From positions 150,969 to 214,968 of the forward strand of contig JAXLQT010000008.1 in the NCBI GenBank assembly GCA_046331505.1: a stretch of 64,000 bases of DNA. The letters are read 5' to 3'. The notes beneath the pieces were generated by a model. The model saw only the letters and a program-made list of their open reading frames with translations, was not told the DNA's origin and made no database searches. Source of the stretch: Acidobacteriota bacterium. Lineage in GTDB: Bacteria > Acidobacteriota > Vicinamibacteria > JAXLQT01. Shown here in pieces: positions 3,151 through 54,420 of the stretch (position 1 is its first letter; the number at the start of each line of letters is the position of its first letter). The position numbers were made by a program, and so were the translations under genes.

Positions 3151-3495
3151 CTGCTCCAGTCGCTTCGCTTCGGGCTCTCACGGCGCTGTCCGCGGTGCGG
3201 GCAGGGTGAGCTCTACCGCGCAGCCATGACCCTCGCGAGCAGGTGTCCCGCGTGCGGCATGAAGTACGTGGAGAGCGAAGGCGATCCGTGGGCGTTCTTC
3301 CTCATCGTCGATCGGATCGCCTTCGTGGTGCCGGCCATCGTCGGTCTGTACCTGGGGTTCCTGTCCGAGGGCCGCGTCGATCGCGTCCTCCTGTGCGCGA
3401 GCCTGGCGCTGCTGCTGATCGTCACGACGCCGCACCGTTACGGGATGTCCGTGGCGCTCGACTACCTGGTTCGCCGCGCCACCGGCGGCATCTGA
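3151..3495 (+). CDS. DUF983-like zinc-ribbon membrane protein
   Basis: A CPRCGQG...CPACGMKY zinc ribbon is followed by two hydrophobic helices, the DUF983 pattern. The start is uncertain: there is no ATG/GTG/TTG in frame between 3088 and 3180. Either CTG 3151 is used or the gene overlaps the protease gene (in-frame ATG at 2995). Confidence 0.5.
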   Translation: MLQSLRFGLSRRCPRCGQGELYRAAMTLASRCPACGMKYVESEGDPWAFFLIVDRIAFVVPAIVGLYLGFLSEGRVDRVLLCASLALLLIVTTPHRYGMSVALDYLVRRATGGI

Positions 3496-3527
3496 TCCGC
3501 GCACGGTGCGTGCGAGAGAATAGGGGC

Positions 3528-4941
3528 ATGCGGACGACGTGGGTCGCCTGGCTCGTGCCGCTGCTGCCGGCCTTCGCTTCGGCGGGCGAAGCGGGGATCG
3601 GTCCCGGCGGTTCGGGCGCCGCGCTCGCGTCCGGTCTTCACTCGGACGGCAAGTGGATCCGCGACGATGCGGGGCGCGTCGCGCTCCTGCGCGGGATGAG
3701 CTACTCGGGCCTCGAGTTCGGCAACTTCCCGGGTGATCAGAACGGCCCCGAGGAGGCGGACTTCGCGCAGATGGAGAGCTGGGGTGTGGACGTCGTGCGC
3801 GTCCCGATCGCGTGGAGCTACCTCGAACCGGCGCCAAACGCATTCGACGAGTCCTATCTCACGGATCACGTCGATCCCGTCGTGGGCTGGGCTGCCGCGC
3901 ACGGCATCGGCGTCGTCTTCGACATGCACCAGTACCTCTGGTCCGAGTGCGTCGGCGGGCTGGGCGCGCCCGGCTGGAGCTGCGACGGCTCCCGGTACCC
4001 GCCGCCGCCGCTCGGGGCGTTCTACGCGCAGGCCGACTTCTGGAACAACGCCTTCGGCCCCGATGGGAGGCCCCTTCTTTACCATCTCCTCGACGCCTGG
4101 TCGCTCGTCGCGCGCCACTACGCGGCGGCGAGCGCGGTGATCGGCTTCGACCTCTTCAACGAGCCGTTCGGCATGCCGCAGACCGGAACGTTCGAGCACG
4201 AGCGACTCTACCCGTTCTACCGGAAGGCCATCGGGCGGATCCGCGCCGAAGGCGCGCTGCAGACGATCTTCCTCGAGCCCCCGATCACGCGGAACGCCGG
4301 CGTCCGCGCCCACCCGGAGCCGGTGGGCGATGCCGACATCGTCTACGCCCCTCACCTCTACACCGAGACCTGGGGAGATCCCAGTCGCAAGTACGACAGG
4401 GACCGCGCCGCCGTCGACTCCGACTACGCCCAGTCCGTCGACGAGGCGGCCGAGCAGGGCGCCGTCCTGTTCGCGGGGAGCTCGGGGGCAGCACCGATCC
4501 GGCCAACGGGTTCCTGGCCTCGACCGAGCTCTTCCTGCGCCACAGCGCCGAGGAGCAAGAAGAGCGGCGCGTCGGGGGCGCCTTCTGGGCCTACTTCCCC
4601 GGCGACAACGTCTTCTCGATCGTGGACGCGGACGGTCACGAGAAGGAGAGCTCGTGGACCTCTTCTCCCGTCCTTACCCCGCGCGCACCGCTGGGATTCC
4701 CCACGCCATCCTCTACGACCCGGACCTGCACGATCTCCGCTACTGGTTCCTCGAGGATCCCCAGCGCGCAATACCCGATCCCACGGTCATCTACGTGCCG
4801 ATCGCGCGCCACTACGGCGCCGTCCTCGTGGAGGTCTCGCCGGGCGACACCGCGATCGTCGATGCGGCGCGAAGCCGCGTCCTCGTCTCCCGCGACCGAT
4901 CGTCGCGGCGCCACTTCGTCCACCTGCGTCCGGCACCGTGA
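3528..4941 (+). pseudogene. glycoside hydrolase family 5 (cellulase/endoglycoceramidase-like), secreted; interrupted by two -1 frameshifts
   Basis: RBS and ATG at 3528 precede a signal peptide. The GH5 acid/base motif LFNEP is present. The nucleophile motif FAGELGG is only recovered by shifting frame at a G-run near 4473, and the C-terminal beta-sandwich is only recovered by a second shift near 4645. The product is continuous across three frames and ends at TGA 4939-4941. Confidence 0.7.
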
Positions 4942-8355: not shown

Positions 8356-8362
8356 CGTCTCC

Positions 8363-11153: not shown

Positions 11154-14100
11154 ATGAGCCCGGAGGTCCACGCATGCCCTGACGCGCACGCGCTCCATGC
11201 GACGTTCGTGGCGCGGCTTCGCGAGGCGGTCTGCGGGAGGCGCCATCCGCTGGATCCGATCACCGTCGTGGCGCCGACCACGAGGCTCCTCGCGGCGCTC
11301 CAGGTCGCGACGGCGCGCGACCTCGGGGCGGTGGCGGGAGTCTCGTTTCTCCCGTACGGACGGCTCGCGGAGCGGCTGCTGGAGCGCTCCGGGGAGCCGC
11401 CGCGGGCTTTGCTTCCGCCGGTGGCGATCCAGGCGCTCATCGGATCGATCGCGCTGGAGGTCGAGGAGCTGAAGCCGCTGGGCGAGCTCCGCCGCGCGGG
11501 CAGGGCGCTCTCGCGAGCGATCCGGGCGATGCGCGAGTCGGGCGTCGGCGTCGTTCCTTCCGCGGCGAAGACCGAGCCGCTCGTGCGCGTCCATCGCGCG
11601 GTCTCGGAGGCGATGGCGCGCGGGGAGCGAACCGACGAGCCGGAGCTGATGCATCGGGCCGCGAATGTCGCGCGCGCCACGGCCGCGAGCCTCGGGCGCG
11701 TCCTTCACGTGGGAGCCTACGACGTCATCGGCGTGACGGCACGGCTCCTCTCGAGATCAGCTTGCGCGACGCGCGTCGAGCATCTCGTCCTGGGCGCCGG
11801 CGGCGGACCGGCGTTTCGCTGGGCGGCGACGGCGGCCGCCAAGTCGGGGATGGAGACCGGCAAGGACGAGCGTGCGCCGCGCGCCGGACGCCGCCGCTCG
11901 CGCCTCCTGGACGTCCTCTTCGCCGGAGACGCGACAGCGGAGCTCGCGCCTGGAAGGCTCACCGGGTTCGAGGTCGCCGGGACGATTGCCGAGCTCGAGG
12001 TAGCCGGCACGATGGCGCTTCGCTGGCACGGTTGCGGGGTCCCGCTGGAGGAGATCGCGATCGTCGCTCGATCGCTCGACGACTACGCGCCGCATCTGAC
12101 GCACGTCTTCGGACGGATGGCTCTTCCGTTCACCAGCTCCGCGTCGCTTCCTCTGCTTCGTCGTCCGGCGGCGCGCGCGGTCCTCGAGCTCTTCGAGCTA
12201 CCCGGGCGCGGCTTCTCGCGCGATGCGGTGTGCGAGTTGCTGCGATCGCCGCAGGCGTCGCGCCTGCGGATGGCGGCGCGCGTGGCCGAGCCGGACGGGG
12301 ACAGGCCGCGGCCCACCGGAGCCGGCGACGGGGATCGCCGCGGCGAAGATCCGCCCGCGATCGAGCCAGCAGGGGACGACGCGGACGCGGTGGATCGGAT
12401 GGCGCGGCGGCTCGGGCTGCGGCGGGGGCTCGACGGATGGAAGCACGCATCCCCCAGGCACCCGGCGCTGGGCTCGATCGCCACCGTTCTCGAGGATGCG
12501 TATGCGAGCCTCTCGCGGGCGCTGGAGGCCCGGAGCTGGATCGCAGCGCTCGCGGGGCGCGGGGCTCGTGTCGGCGCTCCTCGGAACTCCGGAGACCGAC
12601 GGGGAGCTCGCGTCGCCGTTGCTCGCGATCGGGACGCTCGCGCTGCTCGAGGGTGTGGCGCCTCCGCCGGATGACATTGGGTCGCTCGCGTCATGGGTGC
12701 GTCACGTGCTCTCGGAGGCGCGCGATCCCGTGTGCGGGCGGGATCGCGGAGGGGTCCGGGTGCTCGACATGATGCAGGCGCGCGGCCTCGCGTTCCGTCG
12801 CGTGGTGATCGCGGGCGTCCACGAGGGCGCCCTGCCGCGGATCCCTACGGAGGACCCGTTCGTCCGCCATGTGGCCGGCACCGTGACGCCGGCAGCGAGC
12901 ACGCCGCCAGATGGGCCGGACTCGGATGACGCGTCCGATCTCGGGGAGGAGCGGCTCCTGTTCGGCCTCGCTCTCGCCGCGGCAAGCGAGGAGGCGTGCG
13001 TCACCTGGCAGCGCGCCGACGACGCCCAGCGGCCCCGCAGCCTGTCTCCCTTCCTGCGCGAGGTGTGGCGCGCGATCGGGGATCCGGGGCCAGGGCACGA
13101 CCTCTCCGCGTTCCAGCGGTTGCCGACGCATCCCGCGCTGTTCGCGTCCCAGCTCGCCGCCGCGACGGGATTGCTCGAGCCTTCGCGCGCGCTCTCGGCG
13201 ATCGGGATGCTGGCTCCGACCGATCGATCGGCCGCGGTCGCTGGCGTCGCGCGCTCTCTCGGCGTGATGGATCGCGGCCTCGACGCGGGCCTCCGCCATG
13301 TCGCGGCGACGGATGCGTTCGAGGCGCGGCGCGGGCGGGAGCCGGAGGATCTCGCCTTCGACGGATGGGTGGGCGAGGCGCCCTCGGAGTCGACACGCGC
13401 GCCGATGGCCGTCTCGCAGCTCGATCGGCTTGGCGACTGCCCGTTGAAGCACTTCTTCGGTGGGCGTCTCGGGGTCCGCGCGCTCGAGTCGCCCGAGGAC
13501 GAGCTCATCGAGCCGCGCGCCATCGGGATGGCGGTCCACGGCTTGCTCAAGACGCTCTACGAGCGGCTGCCGCTCCCGTGGAACGACACCGCCGCGGTGC
13601 TCGCCGAGGCGCGCCGCTTGCTGCCGGCGCTCGTTCGCGAGGCCCTCGCGCCCGTCGCCCATGGCCCTCTGCTGGGCTACGACGCGCTCGCGCGGGCCGA
13701 GGAGGGGAAGTGGCGCGTCGCCGTTTCGGAGCTCCTCGGCAGGGACGTCCCGCTCCTGGCCGAGCGCCGCGTCCGCGAGATCCACGTCGAGAAGGAGGTT
13801 GCGCAGACCATCGCGATCGGGCCGCGTGAGGTGCTCATGACCGGACGCTACGACCGCGTGGCCACGTTCGCCGCGGCGGGAGAGCCCGAGGAGGTCGCCG
13901 ATTACAAGACGGGACGATCGGCGGTCACCCGCGTCGCGAGCGCGGCGGATGCCATCGGCGGACGGAACCTCCAGCTCTTCGTCTACGCGCTGATCCGGGA
14001 GGCGGAGAGCGGGCTTCTGCCGTTGATCTCGGCGCTCTCGGTGCGCCCGCTCGATCGGCGCGGACGTCCCGTGGGCGCCAAGGAGGTTGCGAGCGGCACC

Positions 14101-14343
14101 CTGCGAGCCGAGATCCGCCCTTCCGTCGTGGCGGCTCACCGCGTCGCGCTGGAGCGGACGATCGGCACGCTGCTCGATCTCCGCGCGCGCGGGCTCTTCC
14201 CCATCTCGCCCACCGACGAGAGCTGCCGCTTCTGCGACTTCCGCTCCGCGTGCCGTACGTCCCACGCACCGACACGCGCCCGCGTCGCCTCGGCCGCGCC
14301 CTTCGCGGCCTACTACGCGCTCTCCAGGAGGAGCTCGCGATGA
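11154..14343 (+). pseudogene. AddB-like PD-(D/E)XK nuclease subunit (inactive-helicase N-terminus plus RecB-type nuclease with Fe-S Cys cluster); single frameshift
   Basis: Two ORFs (11154..12674 in frame 0 and 12223..14343 in frame 1) together form one protein. The nuclease motif VADYKTGR and the Cys cluster CRFCDFRSAC are present. The join is at a G/C run near 12550. The stop TGA overlaps the next gene's ATG (ATGA). Confidence 0.65.
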
Positions 14344-17300
14344 GCCGCCCGCGGCCGCGCGATCACGCGCAGAGGGAGCGGGCCGTGCTCGCGCGCGATG
14401 CGAACGTCGTCGTCCTGGCGGGCGCGGGCTCCGGGAAGACGAGCCTCCTGTGCGAGCGCGTCCTCCATCTCGTGATCGGGCGGGGGATCGACGCCGCGCG
14501 GATCGCGGCCATCACGTTCACCGAAAACGCGGCATCCCAGATGCGCGACCGTCTCGCCGCCGCGTTCGACGGTCTTGCCTCGGGTGGATCGGACGTCCCC
14601 GTCGAGGCGGAGCGCGTGCGCGTGCGGCTCGCGTCCGCGGGGTCCTTCCCCGTCGCCGCCGCGGAGATCCGTCGCCGCGCGCGTGCCGCCCTGGCGGCGC
14701 TCGATCGCGCGAGCATCGCCACCATCCACGGCTTCTGCGCGCGCCTGCTGCGTCGCCACCCGTGCAGGCGGGCGTGGCGCCTGGCTTCGACGTGGACGCC
14801 GACTTCGAGCGCGATCGCCGTGCGCGCGACCTCTTCCTCGGGGCGCTCCGCTCCATCTGCACCGCGGCCGCGACGCGGGATCGCGCCGAGGCGATCCTCG
14901 GCACGCTGACCGTCGAGGACCTCCGGGAGCTCTTCGTGGGGCTCCTCGGAGGCACGGTGCCGCGCGGCGCGCCGGGACGCGACCTGCTCTCCGTCGATCG
15001 CACGGGCGAGCTCCTGCGCCGGCATCTGTTCCGCCTCGCGGGCGAGCTCCGTCCGTTCCTCTCGCCGCGACCGACGACGCGGTATGCGACCTTGCTCGGA
15101 ACCGTGCTCCAGCGGCTCGAGCACGCGATCGAGCACGGCCCGCGCGACATCCCGTCGCTCCCGCCGCTCGGCCTTGTCCCCAGGCCCGGCAAGGGGGACG
15201 ATCCCGAGGGCCGGGACGCGCTCGCTACGGCGGTGCGGTTCCTCGACAACCTCGCCGAGACCGACGACGCGCTGCTCGTCGAGGCCATCGACGTGCTCGC
15301 GCCCGAGGTCGAGCGGGCGCGCGCCGCCGTCGAAGGCGAGGGGCTCCTGTCCTTCGACGACCTGCTCGTGCGATCGCGCAACCTCCTGCGCGATCACCCG
15401 GCTGTCCGCCGGCGCGAGGCGGACGCGCTCCAGGCGATCCTCGTCGACGAGATCCAGGACACCGATCCTCTCCAGTACGAGATCGTCTTCATGCTCGCGG
15501 AGAGCGCGTGGGTTCGGCCCGCGCGCGACCCGTGGAGCGTGCGCCTCGCGCCGGGACGGCTCTTCGTCGTAGGGGATCCGAAGCAATCGATCTTCCGGTT
15601 CCGGGGCGCCGACGTCGCGGCCTTCGATCGTGCGCTGCGCGTGATGGAGGGACAGGGCGCCGACGTCCTGATGCTCCAGTCGAGCTTCCGGAGCCCCCGT
15701 GCGATCCTCGATCCTCTCGATCGCCTCTTCGCGCCCTGGCTCGGTCCGAAGGACGAGCTGGAGCGCGAGTGGAGCGCGGCCCCTTCGTATCATGCGATCC
15801 GCGCCGAGCGGGCCGCGCCCGATCCGGCGTTCGGATGCGGCCCGCGCATCGAGATCTGGAGCCTGCCCGCCGACCTTGCGGCGGGCGCCCGGCGCGTGGC
15901 CGAGGGTCGCGCCATCGCCACGCATATCGCCGCTGCGGTCTCGAACGGCCTTCGCTACGAGGACCACGCGATCCTGCTCGCGGCGTTCTCGGACGTCGCC
16001 GCCTACGCGCGCGCCCTCGATCGGGCAGGAATCCCGTTCACCCTCGAGGGGGGGCGCACCTTCTACGAGCGTCCGGAGGTGACCGATCTACTCGCGCTCC
16101 TGAGGGCGCTCGCCGAGCCGAACGACCGCGTGGCGCTCCTGTCGTTCCTCCGATCGCCGGTGGGCGCGGTGCCCGACGCCGAGCTCCTCCGCCACGTGGA
16201 GTCGGGCGGCGCGATCGCCGTCGACGGGGAGCCCGATCCCGCGTCGCTCCCCGCGCTCGCGCGCTCTCTCGGCCTGTACCGGAGGCTCGCCAGGCGGATC
16301 AGCGGCGTACCCGTGGACGAAGCGGTCCGCGCCGTGATCGGCGAGACCCGCCTCATGGAGATCCACGCGGCAGGGTTCGATGGGGCCCAGCGTGTGGCGA
16401 ACCTCCGCAAGATCGAGGCGCTCGCGGCGGACCTCTCCCGCGATCGGTTCCTGTCGCTCTCGGGGCTCGTGCGCGATCTCGAGGCGCGGGAGAAGAGCTC
16501 CGGCGGGGAGGGCGAGCCGGCGCTGGCGGACGAAGGGCTCGACGCGGTGCGCATCGTGACCGTCCACCGGGCCAAGGGACTCGAGTTCCCGGTCGTCTTC
16601 GTGGCCGACATGGCGCGCCACGATCGGGAAGGCGCCCAGGAGAGCCACGCCGGCTACACGGAGCGCGAGCCGGGACCCGGGCTCGCCGTGCGGCTCCTCG
16701 GCGCGCACGTGCAGAGCACCCTCGGGGCGCTCGCCCGGGGAACCGAGGAGGTCCACCGGCCCGCCGAGCACAGGCGGTTGCTCTACGTTGCCGCCACGCG
16801 GGCGCGGGAGAGGCTTGTCCTGATCGCAGGCTCCGCGCGCGGGACGCGCTCGTCGTGGGTGGAGGCGCTGCGATCGTGGGGATACGATCCTCGGACGCCC
16901 CCCCGGGACGGCGAGCGCCTGCTCGGGTCGCGCGTGCTCCACCGGAGCATCGCGGACGACGTCACCGCGCCGCCCCGGCGCGCCATCGCCGCGCCCGATC
17001 TCCATGCTCCCGCCGCCGCGTTCCTGTCCGCGGCGCGAAGCGTACGCGCGGTGAGGCGCATGGGGTCGCCGACGGCGCTCCGCGAGGAGCGCGAGGCGGC
17101 GCGATCGGAGGAGCACGCTCTCTCGAGGCCCGTCGCGTTCGCGATCGGGCTCACCGTCCACGCGGCGCTGGAGGCGATGGACTTCGCCGATCCCTCCCCG
17201 GCGCTGGCGTACGGGCGCGTCCTGGCCCTCGCGTCGCGCGCGTCGGACCAGCACGGCGTCGATCCCGCCACCGTCGCCCCCGCAGCGGCGCGGATCCTGG

Positions 17301-24551: not shown

Positions 24552-24589
24552 CCGGAGGCTCGTCCCCCCGCCGCGGCTATCATGGCGCC

Positions 24590-28042: not shown

Positions 28043-28059
28043 GATGGTGCGCGTCTCTC

Positions 28060-35521: not shown

Positions 35522-35589
35522 AACGCGGATGGCGGCGGCCGTACTCTGCGCGGCTGCCCGCGGTCCCGCGGAGCGGCCAAGGAGAACGC

Positions 35590-36925: not shown

Positions 36926-36939
36926 GGACAATCCCCGCC

Positions 36940-37626: not shown

Positions 37627-37849
37627 CCCGCTAGGTTATCGTCCCGGCGGACGATCGCGATGACGCTCCCACCGCCCCGGAGAGGGAACCTCATCCTGGC
37701 GGCTCTCTCCACGACGCCCTCCTTGCCGGGCCGTCGAGATCGCGCTCCAGGTCCTCGGCGTGCCGCGAGAAGGGATCGGCTCGGCCGTCGTGACGACCGA
37801 CTGCGCTGCGGGGGCGCTGGGTCCTGTTCCCGAACGCGCCGTGGATGAG

Positions 37850-38690
37850 GCAGGACCCCGACCTCTGGAGCTGCTCGCCCGGCGCGCGCCCACGACGGTT
37901 GGGAGAACGCAGTGCTGGTACACGATCAACCGTGACGGCCTGGAGCGACGAGGTGCCGGGAGCTCCCAGGGCGTCCCCTGGTTCTGTGCGCCGGCGACTC
38001 CGTGACAGCGGGGTGGCGCGTCCGCGCGACACCTATCCGCGGTGCTGGCGTGCAGATCGCCGCGCGCGCGCCTGGGCTCGCGTCCGCCTTCGTGATCAAC
38101 ACCGGCGTACGGCTACAGCTCCGAGCAGGGCCGCCTCAGCCTGGTGACCGCTCGCTGAAGCCGGACGTCGTTCTCGTGGGCTTCGGCATCGACGACGACT
38201 GGCCCACGCCCTTCCCGGACGAGCTCGTCGGGGACGCCTGTCGGCCGGACGGACCTGCGCGGCGCAAGGCGCCGGAGCCATCTCTACTGCCTGCGGGACG
38301 CGATCGTCGGCGCCAAGCGCGAGCGCATCGAGGCGCAGCGCGGCTCGCTGCGCGCGTGGCGCGCCGGACCGCTACGTCGCGAACCTGCGCGCGATGGCGG
38401 CGATCGTGCGCGAGAGCGGGGCAGATCGTCTTCGTCGCCCTGACGTCTGAAGAAGAACACGTGATGGAAGCGAAGTCACGCTCCACGCGCCGTTGCCATC
38501 TACCGCACGCTCGCGCACGCCGTCGCCTTCGAGGAGAACGCCCCCGTCTCGACGTCCCGCTCCTCCTCGGGGCGGCTTCCGAGCAGCCGCCGCTACTTCG
38601 TCGACTGGTGCCACCCGGACGTCGAAGGGTCGCTGGCGGCATCCCGGCGGGAAGCCTGGGCCGCCTGTCGAGGAGGCGCCTGCGCCTCAC
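37850..38690 (+). pseudogene. SGNH/GDSL-family hydrolase, paralogue of 23171..24551; heavily frameshifted
   Basis: Block I VLCAGDSVTAGW (about 37972). Block III PDVVLVGFGIDDDW (about 38160). Block V ...RYFVDWCHPDVEG (about 38600). These lie in three different frames. Confidence 0.35.
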
Positions 38691-38699
38691 GGGCCGTGA

Positions 38700-39545
38700 G
38701 GTCCGCGGGCCGTCTCCGCGCGCTCTTGCTCGGCGCGTCGTGCTGGCGCGCCGCCGCGGCGTGCCCCTTCGCGCGTCTGGTGGCCGTCGACGGCCTTCCT
38801 GTTCGATCCGAGCCGCACGATCGCGCACACGCCCGCGGCAAGCTAGCGCCCGTCGCCCGAGCCGCCTCGACGCCACGGGGAACACGGCGAGCGGCTGGCG
38901 GCGGATCGGGGCGCGCCCTGGACCGCCGGTCGCGCACCTGCTCATCTTCGCACGGTGCTGGCGCGAACCCGGGACCGCGCGCACTTCCTCGCGCTTCTCT
39001 CCGGCGAAGGGCTCGACGTGCTGGCGATCGATTACCGCGGCTACGGCACCTCGACGGGGAAACCGAGCGAGCGCGGCACCTACGCCGATGCCCGGGCGGC
39101 GCGCGCGGCGCTGCTCGCGCGGGACGGCGCCGATCCCGAGCTGCGTCGTGGCGCAGAGCCGCCGGCGTGCGCGATCGCCATCGAGCTCCTGGTCGAGGCG
39201 CCACCCCGCGCGCTCGTCCTGCAGTCCACGTTCACGAGCATCCGGGATTTCGCAGCCATTCACTTCCCGCACGTCCCCACGATCCTCGTGCCGGACCTCT
39301 ATCCGAGCGCGTCGCGCATCGGGCGCATCGCCGTTCCCCTGCTCTACGTTCACGGCGCCGACGATCGGTTCGTGCCGCCGTCTAACCAGGACCGCGCTCC
39401 ACGACCGCGCGGCGGGGCCGAAGGAGCTCCGATCTTCCCGGCGTGCCGGGTCACGCCGACCCCGTCAACGCATCGCCTGTTCGCGAAGCTCGCCGGCGAG
39501 TGGATCCGGGGGCGCCTCGGAGAGCCCGCTACTCGATCCTGATCT
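38700..39545 (+). pseudogene. alpha/beta-hydrolase (BEM46/ABHD-like); at least 4 frameshifts
   Basis: ...PVAHLLIF..HGAGAN... (HGxxGN-like). GLDVLAIDYRGYGTSTGKPSE. ...ALVLQSTFTSIRD...PLLYVHGADDRFVPPS. The expected nucleophile elbow GxSxG is garbled (QSRRRACAIAIEL). Confidence 0.45.
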
Positions 39546-41440
39546 CCTCCACGTCGAGCCCGAGCTTGCGCGTGTCGGTGTTGCCCGGGAAGGTGATGGC
39601 GGGGCCGGAACGCCACCTGAGGCCGAGCTCGACCCTCGCGATCCCCGCCGGCAGCCGAAGACAAGGCGCGCAGATCCGCGGTCCGCAAGACGAGCTCTTC
39701 GGCCGTCGATCGCCGCCCGCAGGTCGATCGCCTGGGGATTCGGTCGCCACGGTGCTCGCCGCGTGTCGACGACGAGGCTTCTCGCGCCATGGGGGACGTC
39801 CATCTCCATGCGCACGTCGCGACGGCGCCCATCCAGGCGCCACCATCGAGGAAGCCACGCGTTCGATCCAGGCCGTCCCGGATGCGCATCGAAGCGGCCG
39901 GCCGGTGGGCGTTGGGGTCCTTCACCGGCTCGTCGAGCGCCACCGGTGGCCCGTCGATGCGGGCGGCAATCCACGCGGGATCCAGCAGATCCACCTGGGC
40001 GTTCCGCCTCCGTATCCTCCCGCGCCGATCCCGGCTCGCAATCTTCGTCACCACCAGGTAGTCGCAGCGTGCGAGGGCGGCGGGCATGTCGGCGGTATCG
40101 ATCTCCTCGAACGGACCCAGGCGCCGCCGATCGAGCGGGTGGAGCGCGACGTGGCTCGCGATGCCGACGAGGAGGTCTCGACGCCCGTCGCGCCGCGCGA
40201 GGTCGTTGACGAGCGCCACCGCGCGGGACCGCGACTCCGGCTGCGGCAGGCGCAAGCGCCGGAGCGAGGGGATGCCCTGGGTCAGACCCACGACGCAGAA
40301 GGCGGCGAGCACGAGCATCGCGCGGAGCCTCGGCTCAGCCGGCGCGCGTGCGCCCAGCCGGCGGTGGAGGCTGCTCGCGGCGAGCCGGCTCCCGGCGCCG
40401 ACGAAGTGGCCGAGGAAGAGGACGAGGAATGGATAGAGAACGAGGAAGTTCCGGTGGAACGACGCTCGCTGCGAGCAGATGAAGGCGAGCTCGACGATCG
40501 GGAACGCGAGCATCAAAGGCCCCGCCGGGAGGCGCGCGAGGGCGAGCACGGCACCGGCGAGCGCCGGGTAGAAGAGCCAGGGGGACATCTCCGCCACGAG
40601 CTGCGGTGCCTGGAGGCGGAGGTGCGCGAAGCCCGGATACACCTCCGCGGTCTCGTGGCCGAGCACCTTGTAGTGGTGGACCTCGTAACCCGCGCCTCGC
40701 AGGAAGGAACCGAAGTCGAGAAACGCATAGGGATCGAAGGCGGCGAACACGGCGCCGGGGACGATCGCGAGCACGAGGGCCAGCCGCCACCGTGGCCTCC
40801 GCGCGAGGGCGAGGGCCGGCAAGAGAAGGACCGGGGCGCCGCTGTACTTGGTGGATACGACCATGCCCGCGAAGACGCAAGCCAGCACGTGATCGCGGCC
40901 GTGACCGCACGTGGCGTACCTGACGGAGAACAGTGCCGCGAGGATGACGAAGAGGACCATCGGCACGTCGGTGGTGACGAACCGCGAGTGGGCGACGTGC
41001 AGCGACAGGCAGGAGATCGCGAGGGCGCCGATCAGGCCGGCGACGATGCCGAACGCCGCCTCTCCGAGGAAGTAGGTTGCGGGGATCGACAGTGTTCCGA
41101 GCACGACCGTGAGGGTCCGGTTCCACGCCACGAACGAGGGATGGGAGATCGAGGCGCTGCCGGAACGTCCGAGACACTCGATGCGATCGAGGCTACCGAG
41201 GTACCCGGGCGACCAGGGGCCCACTCCCATGAGGACGACGTAGTGGGCGGCGTCGATCGCGGCGTTCGCGTAGAAGAGGAACCCCGGGTAGTTGAAGCAG
41301 TGGGGGTTCCAGTCTCCCGTCTGGATGATGTGGATCGCCGGGAACACGATGGCTGGCTCGTCCCAGTGCCGTGTAGGGCAGGCCGAAGCCGCTACCGAGC
41401 GGCGCGAAGAACCTGCAGAGGTGATGACGCCCAGAAGCAG
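39529..41440 (-). pseudogene. GT-C glycosyltransferase, PMT_2/ArnT-like (family 39/83) no. 1; several frameshifts
   Basis: ...GSGFGLPYTA..WDEPAIVFPAIHIIQTGDWNPHCFNYPGF (the PMT_2 signature) is split between frames near 41350. About 11 TM helices. The plausible C-terminus ...ITFPGNTDTRKLGLDVEEIRIE* ends at 39529 in a different frame from the 665-aa track ORF. Confidence 0.55.
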
Positions 41441-41619
41441 AAGGGCGATCTTGCGCGAGCCGCGATGGGGGCAACGCCTTCGGGTTTCTGGCGGTTCGCG
41501 GCGATGTTGAAGGCCGGCCAGCGGCGGCGGGAGGTTCGTTGTACGCTCCCGGCCCGCGCCTGGACATCGCGCGGCGAGGAGGTCCCTTCCTCACAGAAAC
41601 CAGGACCTCGGAAGGAGCC

Positions 41620-42242
41620 ATGATGAACCGAGCCCTGCTCGCGTCCCTGCTGACCCTTTTCCTGTGTGCCTGCCCGAGCGGCGCGATACGACCCAGCCGG
41701 CGCCCGGCGGCGCGGCACGACCAACTGAGGCCCAAGACCGACGCTTGACGACCCCGGCCGAGGCCCCGAAGACCGAGGCCGCCGCGCCTGCCGAGGCGCC
41801 CAAGATGAGACCGCCGAGGTCCAGAAACCCCTGGGCTACAAGCTCAAAAGCCCGGTTCGCGAAGCTCAAGGCGACGTCCACGATGGAGGTTGCCGGCAAC
41901 AAGACCACGACGACCACCGAGATGAGCAGACGCTCGTCGACATCAACGCGGGACGAAGCCACCATCGAGACGGAGACGACGATCCCCGGCATGCCCGCTC
42001 CCACCAAGGCCACGGCGAAGATCCCCTCGAGCACGGTCACCGGTCAGGTCGATCCCAACGCGCCGAAGCCCAAGGAGGGCGAGGAAGACGTGACGGTGAT
42101 GGGCAAGACTCTTCAAGTGCAAGTGGACGGAGATCGACTCCGAGGCCAACGGCGTCAAGACCCACGTGAAGGCCTGAAGCCGCCCTGGCCCCTGGCGGCG
42201 CGGTCAAGTCGGTCTCGGTCTCGAAGATGGAAGGAACCGTGA
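41620..42242 (+). pseudogene. putative lipoprotein; frame-disrupted
   Basis: GGAAGGAG RBS, ATG 41620. Textbook lipoprotein signal MMNRALLASLLTLFLCACPSG. The downstream product continues only by changing frame. The 3' boundary is ambiguous because of antisense overlap with the AlgJ-like gene. Confidence 0.3.
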
Positions 42243-43417
42243 ACGGCGAGACCACCATGGAGCTGGTCGAGTACGGTGGTAGCTTCTTCGCAGGGCGGCC
42301 TCGTCCCGCCAACGGCGTGTCGACGCCTTGAGGCGGGCTTCGTCCCCGCCATCTCAGTCGGTAGCGCGACGCTCGCCGCGAGCCGCTCGAGGCCTTCCAG
42401 CTCCAGTGCGTGTCGTCCGCGTAGAAGACATCCTTCTCGCCGCCGACATCATCGGCTGCCAGATCTTCCTTGGTGTCGGCGTACGTAGCGGATGGTCGAG
42501 CCCGGCCATCTCCTCGAAGAGCCGCGCCTTCGGGTAAGGGTTGTTCATGATCAGGGGCTCGTAGAGGTCGTACTTGTCGACCGAGAGCATGAAGACGAGC
42601 TTCTTCGCGCCCCGCCCGGCCAGCCGGTCTGCGAGCGGCTTGATCGCCTTGCTCACCGTCTGCACCGAGCCGGGCGTCGCGAGGGCAGCACTTGAGGTCC
42701 TCGTGGAAATAGGGTGTTGAGGAGCCTCCTGTTCCGCTCGGCACGGAGAACATCGGGCGATCGAGCGCTCGCGTGAGCGCAGACCTGCGAGGCGAACGCG
42801 CTGACTGGAGAGACTGCAGGAGAGGAGGTTGGCCAGGAGACCTGAGGTTCCCGCTGTTGATGAACTTCACTGGCGGAGCGGGTTGACGTAGCGCGCCTCC
42901 CTGTAAAACGCCCCTCCACGTCCTCGAGCGGAAGCCTGCGACGGATCGACGGATGGCCGTACAGGGCACGGTGACGCGCTGCCCGGTCTCGAGCCAGACG
43001 ATCCTGGGCTTCACGCGATCGAGGTAGCCGCTGTTGAGCGATCCACAGGGTGTCGAGCGGGGGCTTGTTCTTGTAGAGCTGTTCATCACGCTCGCCCTGA
43101 ACCGCATGCGAGGTAGTCCTGGTAGAAGCGGCGCCCTTCCGCTGCCCAGGATGTGCTGCTGTTGCTCACGCCGACCGTCAGATGTCGATAGCCTTCGCCG
43201 CGCCAGTCGGCGTTCGATGCGCGGAGGTCGTCCCCGTTGTGCCGCGCGGGGGCAGGTCGATCCCCAGATGTACCCGAGCCGCGTCAGGTCGCCTGCGAAG
43301 CCGTGGTGCTCGGTCAGGAGCGTTTCGGTCACGCGCGTCCAGGTCACCCAGTTGACCAGGATGAAGACGCCCAGGAAGGCGAGGAAGGCGTGGAAGAAGA
43401 TCTTGCTCGCGCGTTCC
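42155..43417 (-). pseudogene. AlgJ/AlgX-like (DHHW-family, SGNH-like) O-acetyltransferase partner of MBOAT; many frameshifts
   Basis: ATG 43417 overlaps the MBOAT stop (TGATG). N-terminal TM MERASKIFFHAFLAFLGVFILV. Motifs DRPMFSVPSGTGGSS..YFHED, LVFMLSVDKYDLYEP and VFYADDTHWSWKAS (DTHW) are found in three frames. Confidence 0.45.
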
Positions 43418-47380: not shown

Positions 47381-50300
47381 GTGGACCGCAGGCGTCAGAT
47401 CGGGCCCTACCGCGTGCTGAGACCGCTGGGGCAGGGAGGGATGGGGATCGTCTACGAGGCGTTCGACGTGCGGAGCGCGGCGCGCGTGGCGCTGAAGGTG
47501 GTGCGCGTCGGAGACGGGGCGACGGTCGGATCGATCCGGCGTGAGATCGCGGCGCTCGCGACGCTTCGCCATCCGGGCATCGTGCGCATCGTCGACCAGG
47601 GGCTCGTGGATGGTCTGCCCTGGTACGCGATGGAGCTCCAGCGCGGGACGACGCTCGCCGATCACGTCGTGGGCTTGATGAGCGGGGACGTGCCCTCGCG
47701 GCCCTCGGACGGGTCGGACGCCACCGAGCAGCTGAGCGGCGCGGACGCATGGCTCGGGGGCGGGCAGGCTCCCGGCGACGTCGTCCCGGGCCCCAAGCCC
47801 GAGGCCGCGGGCGGGGCGCTCGTCGCCGTGCTGACGCTCCTCTCGAGGCTCTGCGCGCCAATCGGCTACCTGCACGGCGAGGGTCTGGTTCACAGGGATC
47901 TCAAGCCGTCGAACGTCGTCGTGAGACCGGATGGGACGCCGATCGTGATCGACTTCGGGATCGCGGGTGCCGGAGGAGGCGCGCGCGAGGTGCTCGACGT
48001 GGACGCGCCGGTCGTGGGGACGGCCGCCTACATGGCGCCCGAGCAGGTACGCGGCGACCCGCCCGACGCGCGGGCGGATCTCTACGCCTTCGGGTGCATT
48101 GCCTACGAGCTCGTCACGGGCCGGACGCCGTTCCGGGGTGAGAGCGACGCCTCCATCCTCCACCAGAAGCTCCAGGGAGCTCCGGAGGCGCCGTCGTCGC
48201 TTGCGACGGGCGTGCCGCCCGGGCTCGATGCCCTCATCCTCTCGCTTCTCGCGGGCGATCCGCGCGATCGCCCCGGCTACGCGGACGACGTCGCGCGGGA
48301 GCTCAAGGGGCTCGGCGCGGGGGACCTGACCTACCAGGCCGTGCGGGCCCGCCCCCACGTCTACCGACCCTCGCTCCACGGCCGCGCCGCGGATGGCGTT
48401 GCAGCCCGACGCCCGCATCCCGGCGCGCTGCGGGACGGTCGTGGAGCATGGTCGTCTCCGAGGGCGAGAGCGGCCTCGGCAAGACGCGTCGCGATGGAGG
48501 CGGCGCGCGCGGCCGCTCAGGGGATCCTCGTGTCGCGGGATCCTGATCGCGATGGCGCGTCGCCGCTCGGCGGGGTCTCCGAGGCGCCATCGGCTCGGTC
48601 CGTGGAGCGGTGCCGGAACAGCGACGACGCCGATCGTTTCCCGGACGGCGCGGCAAGATCCGGCGGCCGTCGATCCGGCGCTTCGCGATCTCCCCGGACA
48701 GTCCCGGCACGCATCCGCCGGAGCTGCCGGAGGCCGGGAAGCAGCGCGTCCTCGCTGCGCTCTGGGACACGTTCGTCGCGCTCGGGCAACCGGTCCTTGG
48801 TGATCGACGAGACGCCCAGGGCGGACCCGCTGACGGCCGACGCCCTCAACTACCTCGAGCGCGTCCGGGAGCACTGCTCGCCAAGGGCTCTGCTCTTCGT
48901 GTTGACGATGCGTCCAGACGGCTCCGGAACCGCTCCTCGCCTTCCCGGCGGCCGGGGTGAGGAGGCTCGCCCTCGAAAGCGCGGCCGACGACGACATCGG
49001 AGACGTCGCGGCAAGGAGATGCTGGCGCTTCCGCGCGCGTCGGGACCCAGAAGTGGGTGTCCTCCTGCTCGACGATCGGCGGGCATCTGTTCTTCGCGGC
49101 GAGTACGTGCGGGCGGCCCTGGCGCTGGCGCACCTTCACCAGATGCGGACGGTCACTGGCAGGCTGGCGCCGGGGATGATGTCGCGGCGAATTGAGGAGC
49201 ATTGCCCGAGCCCGCCGGTGCTGTGGAGATCGAGGGCCTCCTCGCCCGGAGGCTCCATGCCCTCTCGCCGTCCAGCCGCCGTCGCCGGCGCGCATCCTCC
49301 AGTCCTGCCGCGAGGTCGACCCGTCCATCGTCGCCCGCGATGGAGGCGGACGACCTTCTCCACCAGGAGGGGCGGAGCTGTGCGCTCGCGGGGTGATGGA
49401 GGAGTGCCGGGGCGGTCTCCATCGCCTGGAGGAGCGCCTCGTCGGGCTCGCGTATGCGGCGCTCGATCCAACGCTGCGGCGCGCGCATCACCGTCGCGCC
49501 GCCGAGGCGATCGTGGCATCGCGGCCTGGGACGGTGGAGCTGGGACGGCAGGAGGGGTGCGGAGAACGCGCCCGCGCCGGAGCTGCTACCTCGAGGCGGC
49601 GTAGTACGCCCGCTCGCGCTACTCGCTCGCGGAGTCGGCGCGGCTCCTTCGGCTGCGTATTCGACATTCCGCCTTCGGCGGAGGCGCGCTTCCAGCCATG
49701 CTGACGCGGCCGGCGCGCGCATCGGAGGAGCTCGGATACGGGGTCCTCTCGACGCTCAAGAGCTCGCGGAGGCCGAGGAGCAGTGCCTGCGGGCGTGCCG
49801 CCGACGCGGCCTCGATGCGCGGGGAGGCGCCGCGCGCCGAGGACTCGAGCTCGAGGGCCGTGCGCTTGGCGCGCTCGGGACCGTCGTGTCGACCACGGGA
49901 CGCTCCCGGCGAGGCGCGGGACCTCATGGAGCGTGCTCGGCGTTCTCTCGTCCACGTTCGAGCGCGACCGCGCTGCGCGTCCACGTCGACCTCGGTGTCC
50001 AGTCCTGCAGTCTCTCGATGGCGGAGCTTGCTCGCGAGAGTACGCACGCGTTGACGCTCGCCGAGCACCTGGGCGATCGCGCGACCGAGGGTCGCATCTT
50101 CGCCAACCTCGGCACGAGCAGAACCAGGGGCGCGTCGATCGCGCGGCCTTCGCCTTCGAGCGGGCATCGAGATCCACCGCGAGATGGGCAGCGGCGGCCT
50201 CGGCCTACGCGCTCGGATCTCGGTGCGCTGCACGCCAGCCAGGGCGCCTTGACGATGCACGCCGTCTCTACGAGGGACGCTGTCGGGACGTTCCGGGACG

Positions 50301-50935: not shown

Positions 50936-53900
50936 CGGCGAGCGCATCGCCAGGGTCGGTCCGTATCGCATCCTTCGCGCGGCGGCCGCGGCGGCATGGG
51001 AGTCGTCTGGCGCGATGCATCGCGGATAGACGCGCGTCGCGCGGCGCCTGGGCGTCGCGGTAGACGACGCCGTTACGGTGCGGCGCCATCCGCGCCAGAT
51101 CGCGACGTCGTCGGCTCTCCCATCCCGATCGTCCGCGGGTCGATCAGGACTGTTCGAGGAGATGCCGTGTACGTGATGGAGCTCGCCGAAGGGACGACGC
51201 TGTCGGACTACGTCGATGCCTTCGGTTGCGAGCCGAGCCCGACGGCGAAGGGCCGACGCGACGGAGCGGCTCGCCCGACCGATGCCACGCGCGCTGATCG
51301 GCGCCGGCGGACGGCGTGGGGACGCCGCGCGCGACCTGGCGGCCGCGGGAGGAGCTCTCCGCTGCCGTGCTCACCTTGATCCGACGTCTCTGCGTTCCCT
51401 TGCGATACCTTCACGGCGAGGGGTTCGTCCACCGGGACCTGGAACCGTCCAACGTCATGGTCACGGCGGACGGTACGCTCGACCCGGGATCGACTTCGGG
51501 ATCTCGGCGCCTGCATGGAGACGCGCGGGAGATCCACGTCGGCCGTCGGTCACGGGGACGCTGGCCTACATGGCGCTGGAGCAGGCGCGCGAGACCTCGT
51601 GACGCGGGCGGACTACGCGCTCGGGTACTCGCCTACGAGCTTCATCGCCGAGGCTGCCAGTTCCTCGGCGATGCACCGATCGCGGTGCTGCACCAGCACC
51701 AGGCCGTGAGAGCCTGCGCCGCCCTCCGCGCTCGTGGACGGCGTGCCCCCGGCTCTGGACGCGCTCGTGCTGTCGCTTCTCTCGAAGGAGCCGCGCGATC
51801 GCCCCGCCTACGCCGACGACGGCGCGCGCTCTCGGGCGGCTCGACGCGGCGGACGTCGGCTACGACGCTCCGCGGCCACGGGCGTACGTCTACCGTCCGG
51901 CGCCTGCGGGTTGGACGATGCCCTGCGCAGAGCTCCGTGTGGTGCCGTCGCGCGGCTCGAAGCTCCGCGCCGGGGCAACGCCCTGCTCGCGTCGGAGATG
52001 GCATGGGCAAGACGCGCGTCGCGATGGAGCCCTGCGAGCGGCGCCGGTGATGCGAGGATCGCCGTACTCGTGGCGCGTTGCGATCGCGGCACCTCGGAGC
52101 TCCTGGCGCCGTTCCGGGCTGGTCTCGACGTACTCGCGGAGCGAATTCAGGAACGAGGTGGCGGAGTCGATCGTTTGCCCGGGAGCCGCGCGAAGGTCCT
52201 CGCAGCCTACGCACCCTCGCCGCGATCCTCCTGGGCATCGGCCGGCACGCGGATCCGGAGGAGCTTCCGGAGCGGCCGGAAGGAGCGCGCCGTGCGGATA
52301 GCTCGCGAGACGATCGCGGCGCTGGCGCGCGAAACGCTGGTGCTCTTGATCGTGGAGGACGCGCAGTGGGCGGATGCGCTCATCATGTCGGGCGATCGAG
52401 CACTCCGGCGGCTCGAGCATGGATCCGGCGCCGATCCTCGATCCTGACGTACCGCGAGGACGAGGCGCCGTCGGCTCCGCGCGCTGGCCCGGGGCGGCGG
52501 GGTGAGCGCGGTGAGGTTCGGCGCCGCTCACGGAGGACGAGGTGGTGCTTCCGTGGGGGAGATGCTCGGGCTCGCGAGGTCGCCGGCGCTTGGGGTCCTC
52601 GGCGGAAGCGTATTCGAGAACTCCGTTCTTCCTCGGCGGCATGCGCGCGGCGATCGATCGGGGCGTCCTGACGCGTGACGACGCCGGTCGCTACTGGATC
52701 GGCGCCGGCGAGGCCGTCACCGAAGCGGCCCTCGCCGCTCTACGGTGCCCCGCGCGATCGAAGATCTCGTCGCGTCGCGCCTCGATGGGCTCGGAGGATG
52801 CGTCGAACCTCTGCGGCATCGCGTCGGCCTCGGCCGCGATTGCAGATGCCGAATTCTCGCAGCCGTGGTCTCGACTGGAACGATCTCCTCGGTGCCTGGG
52901 CAGAGCTCTGCGCCCGGAGGGTCGTCGAGGAATCGGGGCGCGACGGATTCCGCCTTCGTCCACGGGCGGCTGCGAGACGTTGCGTACGAGCGGCTTGGTC
53001 CTGGCGCGGATCGATCTCGGCATCGCGGAATGCGGCAGCCATGGCCGCGGGCGGGGCGCGCCGCGTCCTGACCACGAAGGAGCTTGGCCGCCACTGGGAG
53101 GGAGCGGGCGAAGGAAGTGTCGCGCCGCGCGCCAATTTCCACGAGGCCGTGGACGGGTCTCCGTGGCGCGGTACGCGCGGGCGGGAGCGGAGGCCACTAC
53201 TGCGCGGCCATCGCTTCCGAGGACGACGCGCGCGAGCGTGCGACCATGCGCCTCGAGCTGGCCGGCGAGGCGTTGCTCCGCCGCGGCGCCCTCAGGAGGC
53301 GGAGGGCGAGGCGGCGGCGGCGCTTTCGAAGCCACGGGGCTTGGCGATCCCCTGCTCCACGCGCAAGCGCAGCCGGAGTCGCTCGGTTCCGCGGTGATGG
53401 AGCTCGGGAGGATCGACGAGGCGCGCCATCACTTCGAGGCGTCCCTGCACCTCCTTCGCTTCATCCGGCTCCCGAAGCGTCGATCGCGGGCGCGCGAGGC
53501 GCCTCGCGGACGCCCTCGACCTCCTGGGAGAGGTGGCCGCGGCGCGAGCGCACTTCGAGGCCGGCGGCCCGCGCCTGCGAGGCGACGCGGTTTCGCGCAG
53601 CGACGTGCCTGGGTCCCCGGCAGCGAGAGCAGGACGCGGCAGGTCGACACTCGACGCCAGCGCTACGAACAGGCGCTCGCCATGGACCGGTCGCGCGGCG
53701 CGCGCCGGGCCGAGGCCGCGGCTGGACCAACATTGGCAACCTCGAGACGACGCAGGGCAACCTCGGGCGCTGGGCTGCGAGCTTCTCGAGCGGGCAGCAT
53801 CGATCCCTCCGGGAAGATCGTGATCCGCGGACGGAAGGCATCGCCCAGAACCTCGGTGCACGCCAATGCGGAGCGGGGCGATGTGGCCGCCGAGCGCGAT

Positions 53901-54386
53901 CACGATCGCGCCGCGGCCATCGCGCGCCGGGTCGGAGATCGCCGGCTCGAGGGCATCGTTCTCGGAAACAAGGCGATTCTGCAGGAGGACGCCGCGCAAC
54001 TCGTGGAGGCGAGTGCGGCGCGCCTTGCGGCGCTCGCGATCGCTCGCGAGCTAGGCGACCGCCTGTTCGAGGGGATATGGCTGCGCGACCTCGGCGGGCA
54101 GCGCTGCCGGGAGGGCGCATACGGCGAGGCCGGCGATCTCCTCGACCAGGCGGAACGCATCTTCGTCGACCTCGATCAGAAGCTCCATCTCGGCTTCACG
54201 ATCTGCGAGCAGGGGCGTCTTGCGCAGGCCCGCGGAGGCTCCGCGCGCGACCACGTCGCGCGCTCGAGGGAGATCGCGCGGACGCTCGGCGCCGGACCGG
54301 ACAGCGCGCTGGGTGGCAAGATCGCCGATCTCGCCAGCGGGGAGGATCAGTATCCCAGGGCGGCCGAGGACACGTTGACGCCGTAG
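50932..54386 (+). pseudogene. second Ser/Thr kinase-AAA-TPR gene; extremely frameshifted
   Basis: Fragments GPYRILR, GMGVVWRDA, VYVMELAEGTTLSDYV, YLHGEGFVHRDLEPSNVMV, the DFG-region and a TPR-like C-terminus ending ...GEDQYPRAAEDTLTP* (54386) occur in successive frames, every 50-150 nt. Confidence 0.4.
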
Positions 54387-54420
54387 CCGCCCGGGAAACG
54401 GAGTGACGCTGGCGCCGGGG
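54347..54420. repeat. direct repeat copy A (about 85% identical to 54962..55030)
   Basis: tatcccagggcggccgaggacacgttgacgccgtagccgcccgggaaacggagtgacgctggcgccgg versus tacccgagcgcagccgaggacgcgttcacgccgtagccgcccgggaacggagtgaagctggcgccgg. Read on the minus strand it encodes ...FPGGYGVNVSSAALGY*. Confidence 0.7.

Follow-up and report, generated by a model that had tools for sequence, protein, structure and literature searches.

The reading-frame interruptions in the 64,000-nt stretch of DNA analysed here (the window), which lies within a contig of 237,754 nt from an Acidobacteriota MAG in GenBank (proteins MFN79726xx, locus tags U0166_), are best explained as uncorrected sequence or assembly errors and not as biology, in a contig of uneven consensus quality (probability about 0.93). 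A preliminary description of this DNA had already preferred sequence or assembly error to ancient pseudogenes and had called the affected gene calls unreliable; independent contigs of the same strain bear this out, since they match the window outside the error patches and restore the frames within them. The errors fall into two classes, dense patches and solitary 1-nt deletions within runs of G or C (Table 1).

Comparison with independent contigs of the same strain

The comparison set consisted of five Logan contigs (L085-L089) from run SRR26348421, whose alignments cover 25,335 nt (~40%) of the window, and a literature search on this run found no publication. Outside the clusters, 14 differences per ~21.7 kb separated these contigs from the window, as against 231 difference events per ~3.0 kb in the four large clusters; divergence reached 9-12% of positions within patches vs 0% in the adjacent kilobases. 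The patch edges are abrupt, as seen at 43253, from which dense differences extend downward next to a difference-free segment, and 5 of the 10 Logan contig ends fall in, or at most 80 nt from, an error site. None of the lesions within the coverage of L085-L089 was reproduced in those contigs. In the clean control at 36470..37715, the 228-aa protein of 36943-37626 has the same sequence in the Logan assembly. Elsewhere, five isolated mismatches (1566, 1888, 4204-5 and 4398) occur in otherwise matching sequence.

The comparison with orthologous loci that had been proposed earlier thus found the frames restored and full-length proteins encoded in L085-L089: the AlgX-like (354 aa), GDSL (355 aa) and hydrolase (283 aa) genes are intact, the GH5 gene is open through both of its sites, and the Logan versions have full-length homologues. 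All three covered isolated sites (4475, 4645 and 24857) are corrected; the 1-nt changes originally reported at 4473, 4645 and 24855 are 1-nt deletions in runs of G5, G3 and C4, respectively. At the GH5 sites, a true G5 is read as G4 (4475) and a true AAGGGAG as AAGGAG (4645), and the Pfam Cellulase and GH5_C domains lie in separate frames in the window. L088 carries the extra G at both sites, with the GH5 ORF open to the contig end, and both corrected junctions align gap-free with eight homologues.

Comparison with L086 revealed ~234 differing bases in the patch at 37716..40116 (76 mismatched, 117 deleted and 41 inserted), including an in-frame 24-nt deletion near 39.9 kb, while both the GDSL and the hydrolase gene are whole in that contig; at 36469, the last position of the neighbouring patch, the window has a 2-nt deletion. 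The compared part of 41400..43253 (42337-43253) shows 45 mismatches, along with 34 bases deleted and 32 inserted, and the Logan AlgX/AlgJ-like protein (P0121, PF16822) is whole. In GDSL lipase gene 1, the comparison with L087 covers 23779 onward and finds differences at 23779-23888. The scattered errors at 24466..24857 break a 113-aa gene located upstream of a DUF6036 gene; in L087 the 113-aa gene is whole and has an ATGA overlap with the start of the following gene. Moreover, the GT2 (244 aa) and STAS (117 aa) genes, separate in L087, are fused in the window as a 380-aa ORF (27689..28831).

Frame analysis alone under-detects such errors, as in-frame net deletions in the flotillin and AddB-like genes are invisible to it. 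It can also give a wrong picture of the errors, which go beyond homopolymer slips. The flotillin gene had been regarded as perfect; its ORF stays open because the net loss of 24 nt, the sum of eight deletion events, is in frame. In the AddB-like gene, a -1/+1 pair (11752/11759), GGG read as GG (11886) and CCCC read as CC (11903) give a net change of -3.

Exact protein look-ups gave no match for the MBOAT protein, the radical-SAM protein, the 89-aa gene at 3226-3492, P0001 or P0315 (see below); the radical-SAM miss is probably due to the single mismatch at 1566. A scan of genome contigs with the MBOAT protein returned no close relative (best match 41% identity), and a scan of metagenome contigs with the PMT_2-like protein returned relatives at 31-35% only.

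Table 1. Error sites, patches and clean controls in the window (positions are those of the window)
Position	Strand	Feature	Basis
3528..4940	+	GH5 (endoglycosylceramidase-like) gene in three frames through two isolated 1-nt deletions	Pfam, L088, homologues
11752..11903	+	AddB-like gene, hidden compensated indels	L089 alignment; missed by frame analysis
12548..12563	+	Putative 1-nt G-run insertion, GCGGGGCGCGGGGCTC	Codon-usage frame switch at 12555, both frames read
14750..14765	+	Putative 1-nt deletion, CACCCGTG, in AddA/UvrD-like helicase gene (14340-17623)	Frames read
23600..23888	+	Error mini-patch, GDSL lipase gene 1	GDSL_2 domain across 5 junctions
24466..24857	+	Scattered errors, including C7 to C6 at 24570 and C4 to C3 at 24857	L087
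28100..28239	-	Mini-patch fusing the GT2 and STAS genes: five mismatches, T4 to T3, deletions of 6 and 1 nt	L087
31879..32054	+	Flotillin/Band_7 mini-patch: net loss of 24 nt over eight deletion events, frame kept	L087 alignment
34655..36469	both	Patch over three genes: tail of kinase-AAA-TPR gene 32769-35511 (+), desulfoferrodoxin-family gene ~35.63-36.04 kb (+), C-terminal part of EamA transporter gene (-)	Codon-HMM junctions 10-12/kb
36470..37715	.	Clean control	0 differences from L086
37716..40116		Dense patch: GDSL lipase 2 (+), alpha/beta hydrolase (+), C-terminus of PMT_2-type glycosyltransferase (-)	L086
41400..43253		Dense patch: predicted small secreted-protein gene (+), AlgX/AlgJ-like gene (-)	L085, P0121
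43254..44126	-	Clean control: AlgX-like gene start and part of MBOAT	0 differences in 873 nt vs L085
48365..53860	+	Largest patch: kinase gene 1 in its AAA_16/TPR part, kinase gene 2 almost entirely	Codon HMM, 14.4 junctions/kb
56780..56792	-	Isolated frame shift, Kelch/FG-GAP repeat protein gene 54965-57170	Kelch register, PF24681
58543..59424	-	Putative patch: N-terminus of one PMT_2-like glycosyltransferase and C-terminus of the next	Codon HMM, 6.7 junctions/kb

Distribution and spectrum of the errors

A codon-usage Viterbi analysis placed 0.8 frame junctions/kb across 36.9 kb of clean genes and 12.5/kb across 12.8 kb of patches, which confirms the repeated frame changes within genes and the clustering noted before, and the number of affected genes (about 20-21) agrees with the earlier estimate of at least 20. 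The dense patches are narrower and denser than described before; four segments inside the former extents are clean by codon statistics (39.8(40.1)-41.4, 47.4-48.36, 57.2-58.5 and 59.4-60.9 kb). Patch position is independent of gene boundary and strand: patches begin and end within genes, and each of the three at 34.66-36.47, 37.72-40.12 and 41.4-43.25 kb affects 2-3 genes, with both strands involved. In frame-stitched translations, complete Pfam domains extend over the junctions (Cellulase and GH5_C of the GH5 gene, UvrD helicase, two GDSL_2, Desulfoferrodoxin, EamA and Kelch); the Desulfoferrodoxin domain crosses 4 junctions, and EamA matches in two stretches. When random indels were simulated in clean genes, the observed junction density was reached at 20-35 indels/kb, in agreement with the measured rate of ~33/kb. 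Several frame switches correspond to ordinary gene boundaries: the one at 62052 was rejected as a lesion, and the ORF list together with the Viterbi segments assigned those at 1678, 2686, 9224, 17619, 26048, 28767, 30593, 31144 and 32755 likewise.

The error spectrum departs from the initial picture of single-base slips, usually in G/C runs, without accumulated substitutions. Two patches contain 111 indel events (72 deletions and 39 insertions) of 1-24 nt. Just 58 are single-base events, while 31 span 2 nt, 12 span 3 nt and the others reach up to 24 nt; 98 of the 111 change the frame, and of the 39 one-nt deletions only 11 are located in genuine runs (3 or longer). Mismatches are about as frequent as indels (121 over ~3.4 kb of patch) and, on the window + strand in both patches, comprise 61 C<->T vs 14 A<->G changes (p = 4e-8), an asymmetry expected from a single-strand read artefact and not from natural mutation. 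The isolated class consists of run-length errors: G5 to G4 (4475), G3 to G2 (4645), C4 to C3 (24857), C7 to C6 and T4 to T3. Extreme GC, suggested previously as a cause, was rejected, as patches have a GC of 0.709 and clean sequence one of 0.704, with the same homopolymer length spectra. Repeat collapse was rejected as well; self-BLAST did not reveal any long repeat, and between the two kinase genes identity reaches only 70%, over a stretch of 579 nt.

The kinase patch, other sites and the deposited proteins

Three patches (48.4-53.9, 35.1-36.4 and 58.5-59.4 kb) and four isolated sites (12555, 14759, 34658 and 56786) lie outside the coverage of L085-L089. By analogy with the covered patches, and by homology, these three patches probably share the artefact cause, and the same reasoning suggests this cause for the four isolated sites. 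In the AddB-like gene, L089 stops at 12542, short of the site at 12548..12563; judging from the two frames, the ORFs 11154..12674 and 12223..14343 would form one AddB-like gene joined across this site. Pfam UvrD-helicase and AAA_19 matches cross the junction in the helicase gene, and in the Kelch protein gene the repeat register is unbroken over the shift, with a PF24681 match crossing the junction. The flanks of the glycosyltransferase patch (57157-58542 and 59425-60914) are clean, and the Pfam PMT_2 match lies in the clean part.

In the largest patch, which affects kinase gene 1 (47165-~50930) and kinase gene 2 (~50930-54386), the reading frame is nowhere sustained. Since an hmmsearch of whole frames with homologue profiles was too coarse, it was replaced by a frameshift-aware profile-plus-codon alignment, which regained all kinase and AAA_16 motifs of kinase gene 2 (50.9-54.4 kb) with 49 shifts; this patch was compared with the homologue profile only. 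The frame-corrected patch part resembles the clean paralogues in GC1/2/3 (0.76/0.56/0.86), with 0 stops in 954 codons, a check with some circularity, as codon scores entered into the choice of path. When the representative library was searched with the clean end of kinase gene 2, the MAG's own fragment was the sole match and no independent contig emerged.

Two deposited proteins are products of this patch. MFN7972693.1 (P0001, 'MAG: protein kinase [Acidobacteriota bacterium]') corresponds exactly to 47414..49195, including an out-of-frame tail that makes up its last ~270 residues, and MFN7972695.1 (P0315, U0166_10160), a 176-aa 'hypothetical protein' that matches 53856..54386 exactly, is in fact the end of a kinase about 1,150 aa long. 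A paralogue encoded elsewhere in this MAG, on a different contig (P0003), has an out-of-frame ending too, which suggests that such errors extend through the genome. Artefacts of a public annotated contig are now in protein databases as if they were genuine, and MAG-based pseudogene counts, pangenome presence/absence, domain architectures (such as the false GT2-STAS fusion) and selection analyses would be wrong in the patches. The value of these observations is practical, as a warning on deposited proteins, without new biology.

Origin of the errors

Under the preferred reading, most of the contig would be accurate, but segments of 0.1-5.4 kb would carry an error load about equal to that of one long read without correction, and one-base errors in run length would persist here and there in short runs of G or C. 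The contig may derive from a long-read or hybrid assembly in which accurate reads corrected most positions, and the stretches left uncorrected would be those with only one or two noisy reads, or those where short reads could not align. Nanopore, the presumptive platform, would best account for the excess of deletions and for mismatches that are strand-specific and of transition type, and low coverage would be the presumable cause. L085 and L086 span two patches fully, so accurate reads existed there; that the depositor's pipeline did not use them counts against this explanation.

Strain mixing occurs in metagenome assemblies, and the five isolated mismatches could be strain SNPs; we nevertheless consider it very improbable that the contig is a chimeric consensus of two co-existing strains, with patches representing real sequence of a divergent relative. 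A functional allele predicts mostly synonymous substitutions and indels of 3n, whereas nearly all indel events shift the frame and no ORF survives in the patches, and protein searches returned no second, divergent intact copy. Recent true pseudogenisation, in which the strain itself carries the frameshifts after a mutator or slippage burst, appears less probable still. Replication slippage is possible at several isolated sites in short G/C runs, and four isolated sites and three patches lie outside the independent contigs, but every checkable lesion is absent from same-strain contigs with kilobases of matching flank, high divergence directly beside identical sequence is no mutational pattern, the mismatches are strand-asymmetric, and the patches cross genes and strands. 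Pseudogenisation is therefore already refuted for 40% of the window; the mutator alternative, left standing in the preliminary description, is effectively excluded there. That lesions in the non-covered parts (above all the tandem kinase-AAA-TPR patch at 48.4-53.9 kb and the shifts at 12555, 14759, 34658 and 56786) are genuine is very unlikely. If they were, the tandem kinase paralogues could, for instance, be decaying or the short G/C runs could be slippage polymorphisms, and the artefacts proven elsewhere would mask some real gene inactivation.

The chance that the window is correct and the Logan contigs are in error is negligible: these contigs are automatic and unpolished, but their long ORFs (P0121, GDSL and hydrolase) align end to end with 100+ homologues, and the Logan GH5 is collinear with homologues of 450-470 aa, while the window versions fail such alignment. 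Practically no weight attaches to programmed recoding, by which ribosomal frameshifting, transcriptional slippage or RNA editing would restore the frames in vivo. It was considered only for the conserved protein motifs flanking the shifts and nothing specific favours it; the shifts run in both directions with variable lengths, share no slippery or editing motif, and are absent from the same strain's independent DNA.

True pseudogene-rich genomes, such as those of Mycobacterium leprae and recent host-restricted bacteria, have reproducible, gene-wise lesions with stops and roughly strand-symmetric substitutions. The window resembles them in having many adjacent genes interrupted by frameshifts, but its lesions are neither reproducible, nor confined to gene units, nor accompanied by stops, nor strand-symmetric. 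Closer to the artefact reading, Watson and Warr reportedly described indel and frameshift artefacts of long-read assemblies in 2019. The IDEEL test has been used to measure such artefacts in long-read, especially nanopore, assemblies and in MAGs (Sereika et al., 2022; PMC9262707), and the nanoMDBG paper covers them too (PMC13087279); they depend on coverage and short-read polishing, and affected MAGs can pass quality tiers and be deposited (PMC9262707; PMC13087279). As in these cases, consensus indels in the window lead to truncated or fragmented gene calls, and homopolymer errors are left over (G5 to G4, C4 to C3 and C7 to C6). Unlike the mostly diffuse, homopolymer-centred error of the literature, the error here lies mostly in discrete kilobase patches at ~10%, close to the level of raw reads, with multi-base indels and many substitutions within otherwise essentially perfect sequence. 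Long-read bridges and gap fills occur in hybrid assemblies of the hybridSPAdes, Unicycler, OPERA-MS and PBJelly type. The window shares with them the alternation of accurate blocks and low-quality stretches, with abrupt edges unrelated to gene structure, but its isolated homopolymer deletions in 'clean' blocks favour an incompletely polished long-read-first assembly.

Frame disruption and independent contigs of the same strain

G+C content is ~70% throughout the window. When the sequence was decoded by a Viterbi model with a codon-usage log-odds table, trained on seven long ORFs whose third codon positions are strongly GC-rich, long single-frame genes alternated with stretches without any sustained frame. 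Junctions reached 12.5 per kb in 12.8 kb of these patches, compared with 0.8 per kb in 36.9 kb of clean genes; according to random indels planted in clean genes, 12-14 detected junctions per kb correspond to ~20-35 true indels per kb. Once the translations were frame-stitched, Pfam domains were whole again across junctions, namely a GH5 Cellulase with its GH5_C spread over three frames, UvrD-helicase/AAA_19, two GDSL_2 domains (many junctions), Desulfoferrodoxin (four junctions), EamA and Kelch. The preliminary description is thus real in outline, since the shifts are clustered and affect ~20-21 genes (at least 20 had been claimed), but several of its details are wrong: among the neighbours regarded as perfect, nadB, the TonB-dependent receptor, the ketosynthase pair and MBOAT are single ORFs, while flotillin is damaged (table).

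A stitched AlgX-like query matched an intact 354-aa protein (P0121) from the Logan assembly of SRA run SRR26348421, and from this protein, and by searching for exact copies of small undamaged genes of the window, we reached five Logan contigs, jointly covering 25,335 nt (40% of the window). Outside difference clusters, only 14 differences were found in ~21.7 kb, hence both sequences represent the same strain; stretches with no difference include 24858-28099, 28240-31878, 32055-34167, 36470-37715 and 43254-44126. Inside patches, 9-12% of positions differ. In the Logan version the genes are intact and have full-length homologues: AlgX-like (354 aa), GDSL (355 aa), alpha/beta hydrolase (283 aa), a 113-aa gene upstream of DUF6036, and GT2 (244 aa) and STAS (117 aa) as separate genes. 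It also bears out three isolated one-base losses, at 4475 (GGGGG read as GGGG; previously placed near 4473), 4645 (AAGGGAG read as AAGGAG) and 24857 (CCCC read as CCC; previously near 24855), and both corrected GH5 junctions are crossed without gaps by 8 GH5 homologues. Lone mismatches in otherwise identical sequence (1566, 1888, 4204-4205, 4398, 7977) may reflect either SNPs between strains or substitution errors that were never corrected.

Features of the window and of the contigs compared with it
Feature	Position	Observation
Logan contig L088	1-4719	end 4719 near error
B12-binding radical SAM gene	104-1681	adjoins the next gene
Histidine-specific SAM methyltransferase gene	1740-2651	PF10017, EgtD-like
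Ketosynthase pair	5922-8406	single ORFs
Logan contig L089	7944-12542	end 12542 near error
AddB-like gene, part	11752-11903	hidden compensated indels (vs Logan)
TonB-dependent/OMP barrel gene	20033-23032	single ORF
Logan contig L087	23762-34167	start 23762 near error
nadB (L-aspartate oxidase)	26048-27667	single ORF, minus strand
GT2-STAS	28100-28239	false fusion (vs Logan)
Flotillin, part	31879-32054	eight deletions, net -24 nt
Kinase-AAA_16-TPR gene	32769-35511	
Logan contig L086	40249-36436	end 36436 near error
Patch	37716-40116	76 mismatches, 117 deleted, 41 inserted bases (vs Logan)
Logan contig L085	44126-42330	end 42330 near error
Patch segment	42337-43253	45 mismatches, 34 deleted, 32 inserted bases (vs Logan)
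MBOAT gene	43422-44876	single ORF
Kinase-AAA_16-TPR gene, tandem	47165-50930	
MFN7972693.1	47414..49195	593 aa
Kinase-AAA_16-TPR gene, tandem	50930-54386	
MFN7972695.1	53856..54386	176 aa
147-nt direct repeat	54345-54490, 54960-55102	79% identity

The MBOAT (AlgI-like) gene, whose nearest relatives share only ~41% identity and belong to unrelated phyla, is followed by the AlgX/AlgJ-like gene (PF16822) within 39532-44876. With at least two, probably three, PMT_2-type membrane glycosyltransferase genes nearby (the third without a Pfam match), this segment and 57157-61045 resemble a neighbourhood for the O-acetylation and glycosylation of polysaccharides.

Kinase genes and deposited protein fragments

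Three kinase-AAA_16-TPR (STAND-like) genes lie in the window, two of them in tandem. Aligning a profile of 60 full-length homologues to 50.9-54.4 kb with a custom frameshift-aware alignment required 49 shifts (30 deletion-like, 19 insertion-like), after which GPYRILR, GRGGMGVV, HRDLxPSN, DFG, the Walker A GMGKTR and the downstream AAA_16 motifs appeared in order. Instead of HRDLKPeN and APEQ, the consensus of the profile, the second tandem copy shows HRDLEPSN and ALEQ; as it lies inside an error patch, this does not count as evidence of a pseudokinase. The second kinase gene and the Kelch/FG-GAP gene are separated by an intergenic region that lacks coding signal, and the direct repeat flanks this region.

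The damage extends to deposited proteins. MFN7972693.1 ("MAG: protein kinase [Acidobacteriota bacterium]", deposited on a 237,754-nt contig) was found with the first broken kinase gene and is identical to its window stretch (table) right through its last ~270 residues, an arginine/serine/proline-rich, wrong-frame read-through; MFN7972695.1 is likewise identical to its stretch, and the window therefore belongs to a publicly annotated MAG. This second entry (U0166_10160, "hypothetical protein") represents the C-terminal end of a kinase-AAA-TPR protein about 1,150 aa long; between the two accession numbers there is space for just one further protein, over 4.7 kb. Moreover, the paralogous MFN7973519.1, which lies on another contig of this MAG (184,665 nt), ends in ~330 R/S/P-rich, out-of-frame residues, therefore frameshift errors occur elsewhere in the genome. 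Biological interest is low; in practice, these results warn of poor quality in this MAG and in those of its proteins that have already been deposited.

Technical versus biological cause of the frame breaks

The frame breaks are technical, not biological. The preliminary description favoured error over pseudogenes, and the comparison supports it: independent contigs of the same strain carry the genes intact, divergence steps from 0% to ~10% at sharp borders regardless of genes and strands, and 98 of the 111 indel events in the two large patches destroy the frame. Mismatches are strand-asymmetric in both patches (C<->T 61 vs A<->G 14 on the window plus strand, p = 4e-8), which single-strand read errors predict and mutation does not. 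The frame-corrected kinase patch resembles clean paralogues in codon-position GC and has 0 stops in 954 codons, a partly circular argument, as codon scores helped to pick the path. Given the identical signature and homology, the same cause would apply outside the Logan cover, to the patches at 48.4-53.9 (the largest), 34.7-36.4 and 58.5-59.4 kb, the small gene at 41.7-42.3 kb and the isolated shifts at 12555, 14759, 34658 and 56786.

The error spectrum is broader than initially described. All interruptions that could be resolved had been described as 1 nt long, yet this applies to only 58 of the 111 events (72 deletions, 39 insertions), 31 being 2 nt, 12 being 3 nt and the rest up to 24 nt; nor are they usually in G/C runs, as a true run of at least 3 underlies only 11 of 39 single-base deletions. 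Substitutions, said not to have accumulated, amount to 121 mismatches and are therefore as common as indels. Since 13 events are in-frame and several others mutually compensating, frame reading overlooks damage; hidden from it were the flotillin deletions, the AddB-like indels and the false GT2-STAS fusion (table), as well as a 24-nt deletion near 39.9 kb. Extreme GC, proposed as a cause, is not one, because patches match clean sequence in GC (0.709 vs 0.704) and homopolymer spectrum. We found no long repeats that explain the patches. A rough extrapolation of the measured density, as opposed to a count, gives an estimate of 350-400 indel events for the window as a whole.

Probable origin of the errors

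The contig probably stems from a long-read-first or hybrid assembly, in which accurate reads would have corrected most positions, stretches for which there were just one or two noisy reads would have kept almost the quality of raw reads, and some short G/C runs may have retained run-length errors after polishing. Of the ten ends of the Logan contigs, five lie inside an error site or patch or no more than ~80 nt away from one (table), a hint that few accurate reads cover the very places at which the MAG consensus is poor. Because L085 and L086 run right through two patches, there were evidently accurate reads over the full length of both; that the depositor's pipeline left these reads unused is not accounted for by the proposed mechanism. 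We take nanopore data to be the best match for these patches, given their surplus of deletions and their strand-specific mismatches of the transition type. Artefacts of this class have been described, as has the way they depend on coverage and polishing (PMC9262707; PMC13087279).
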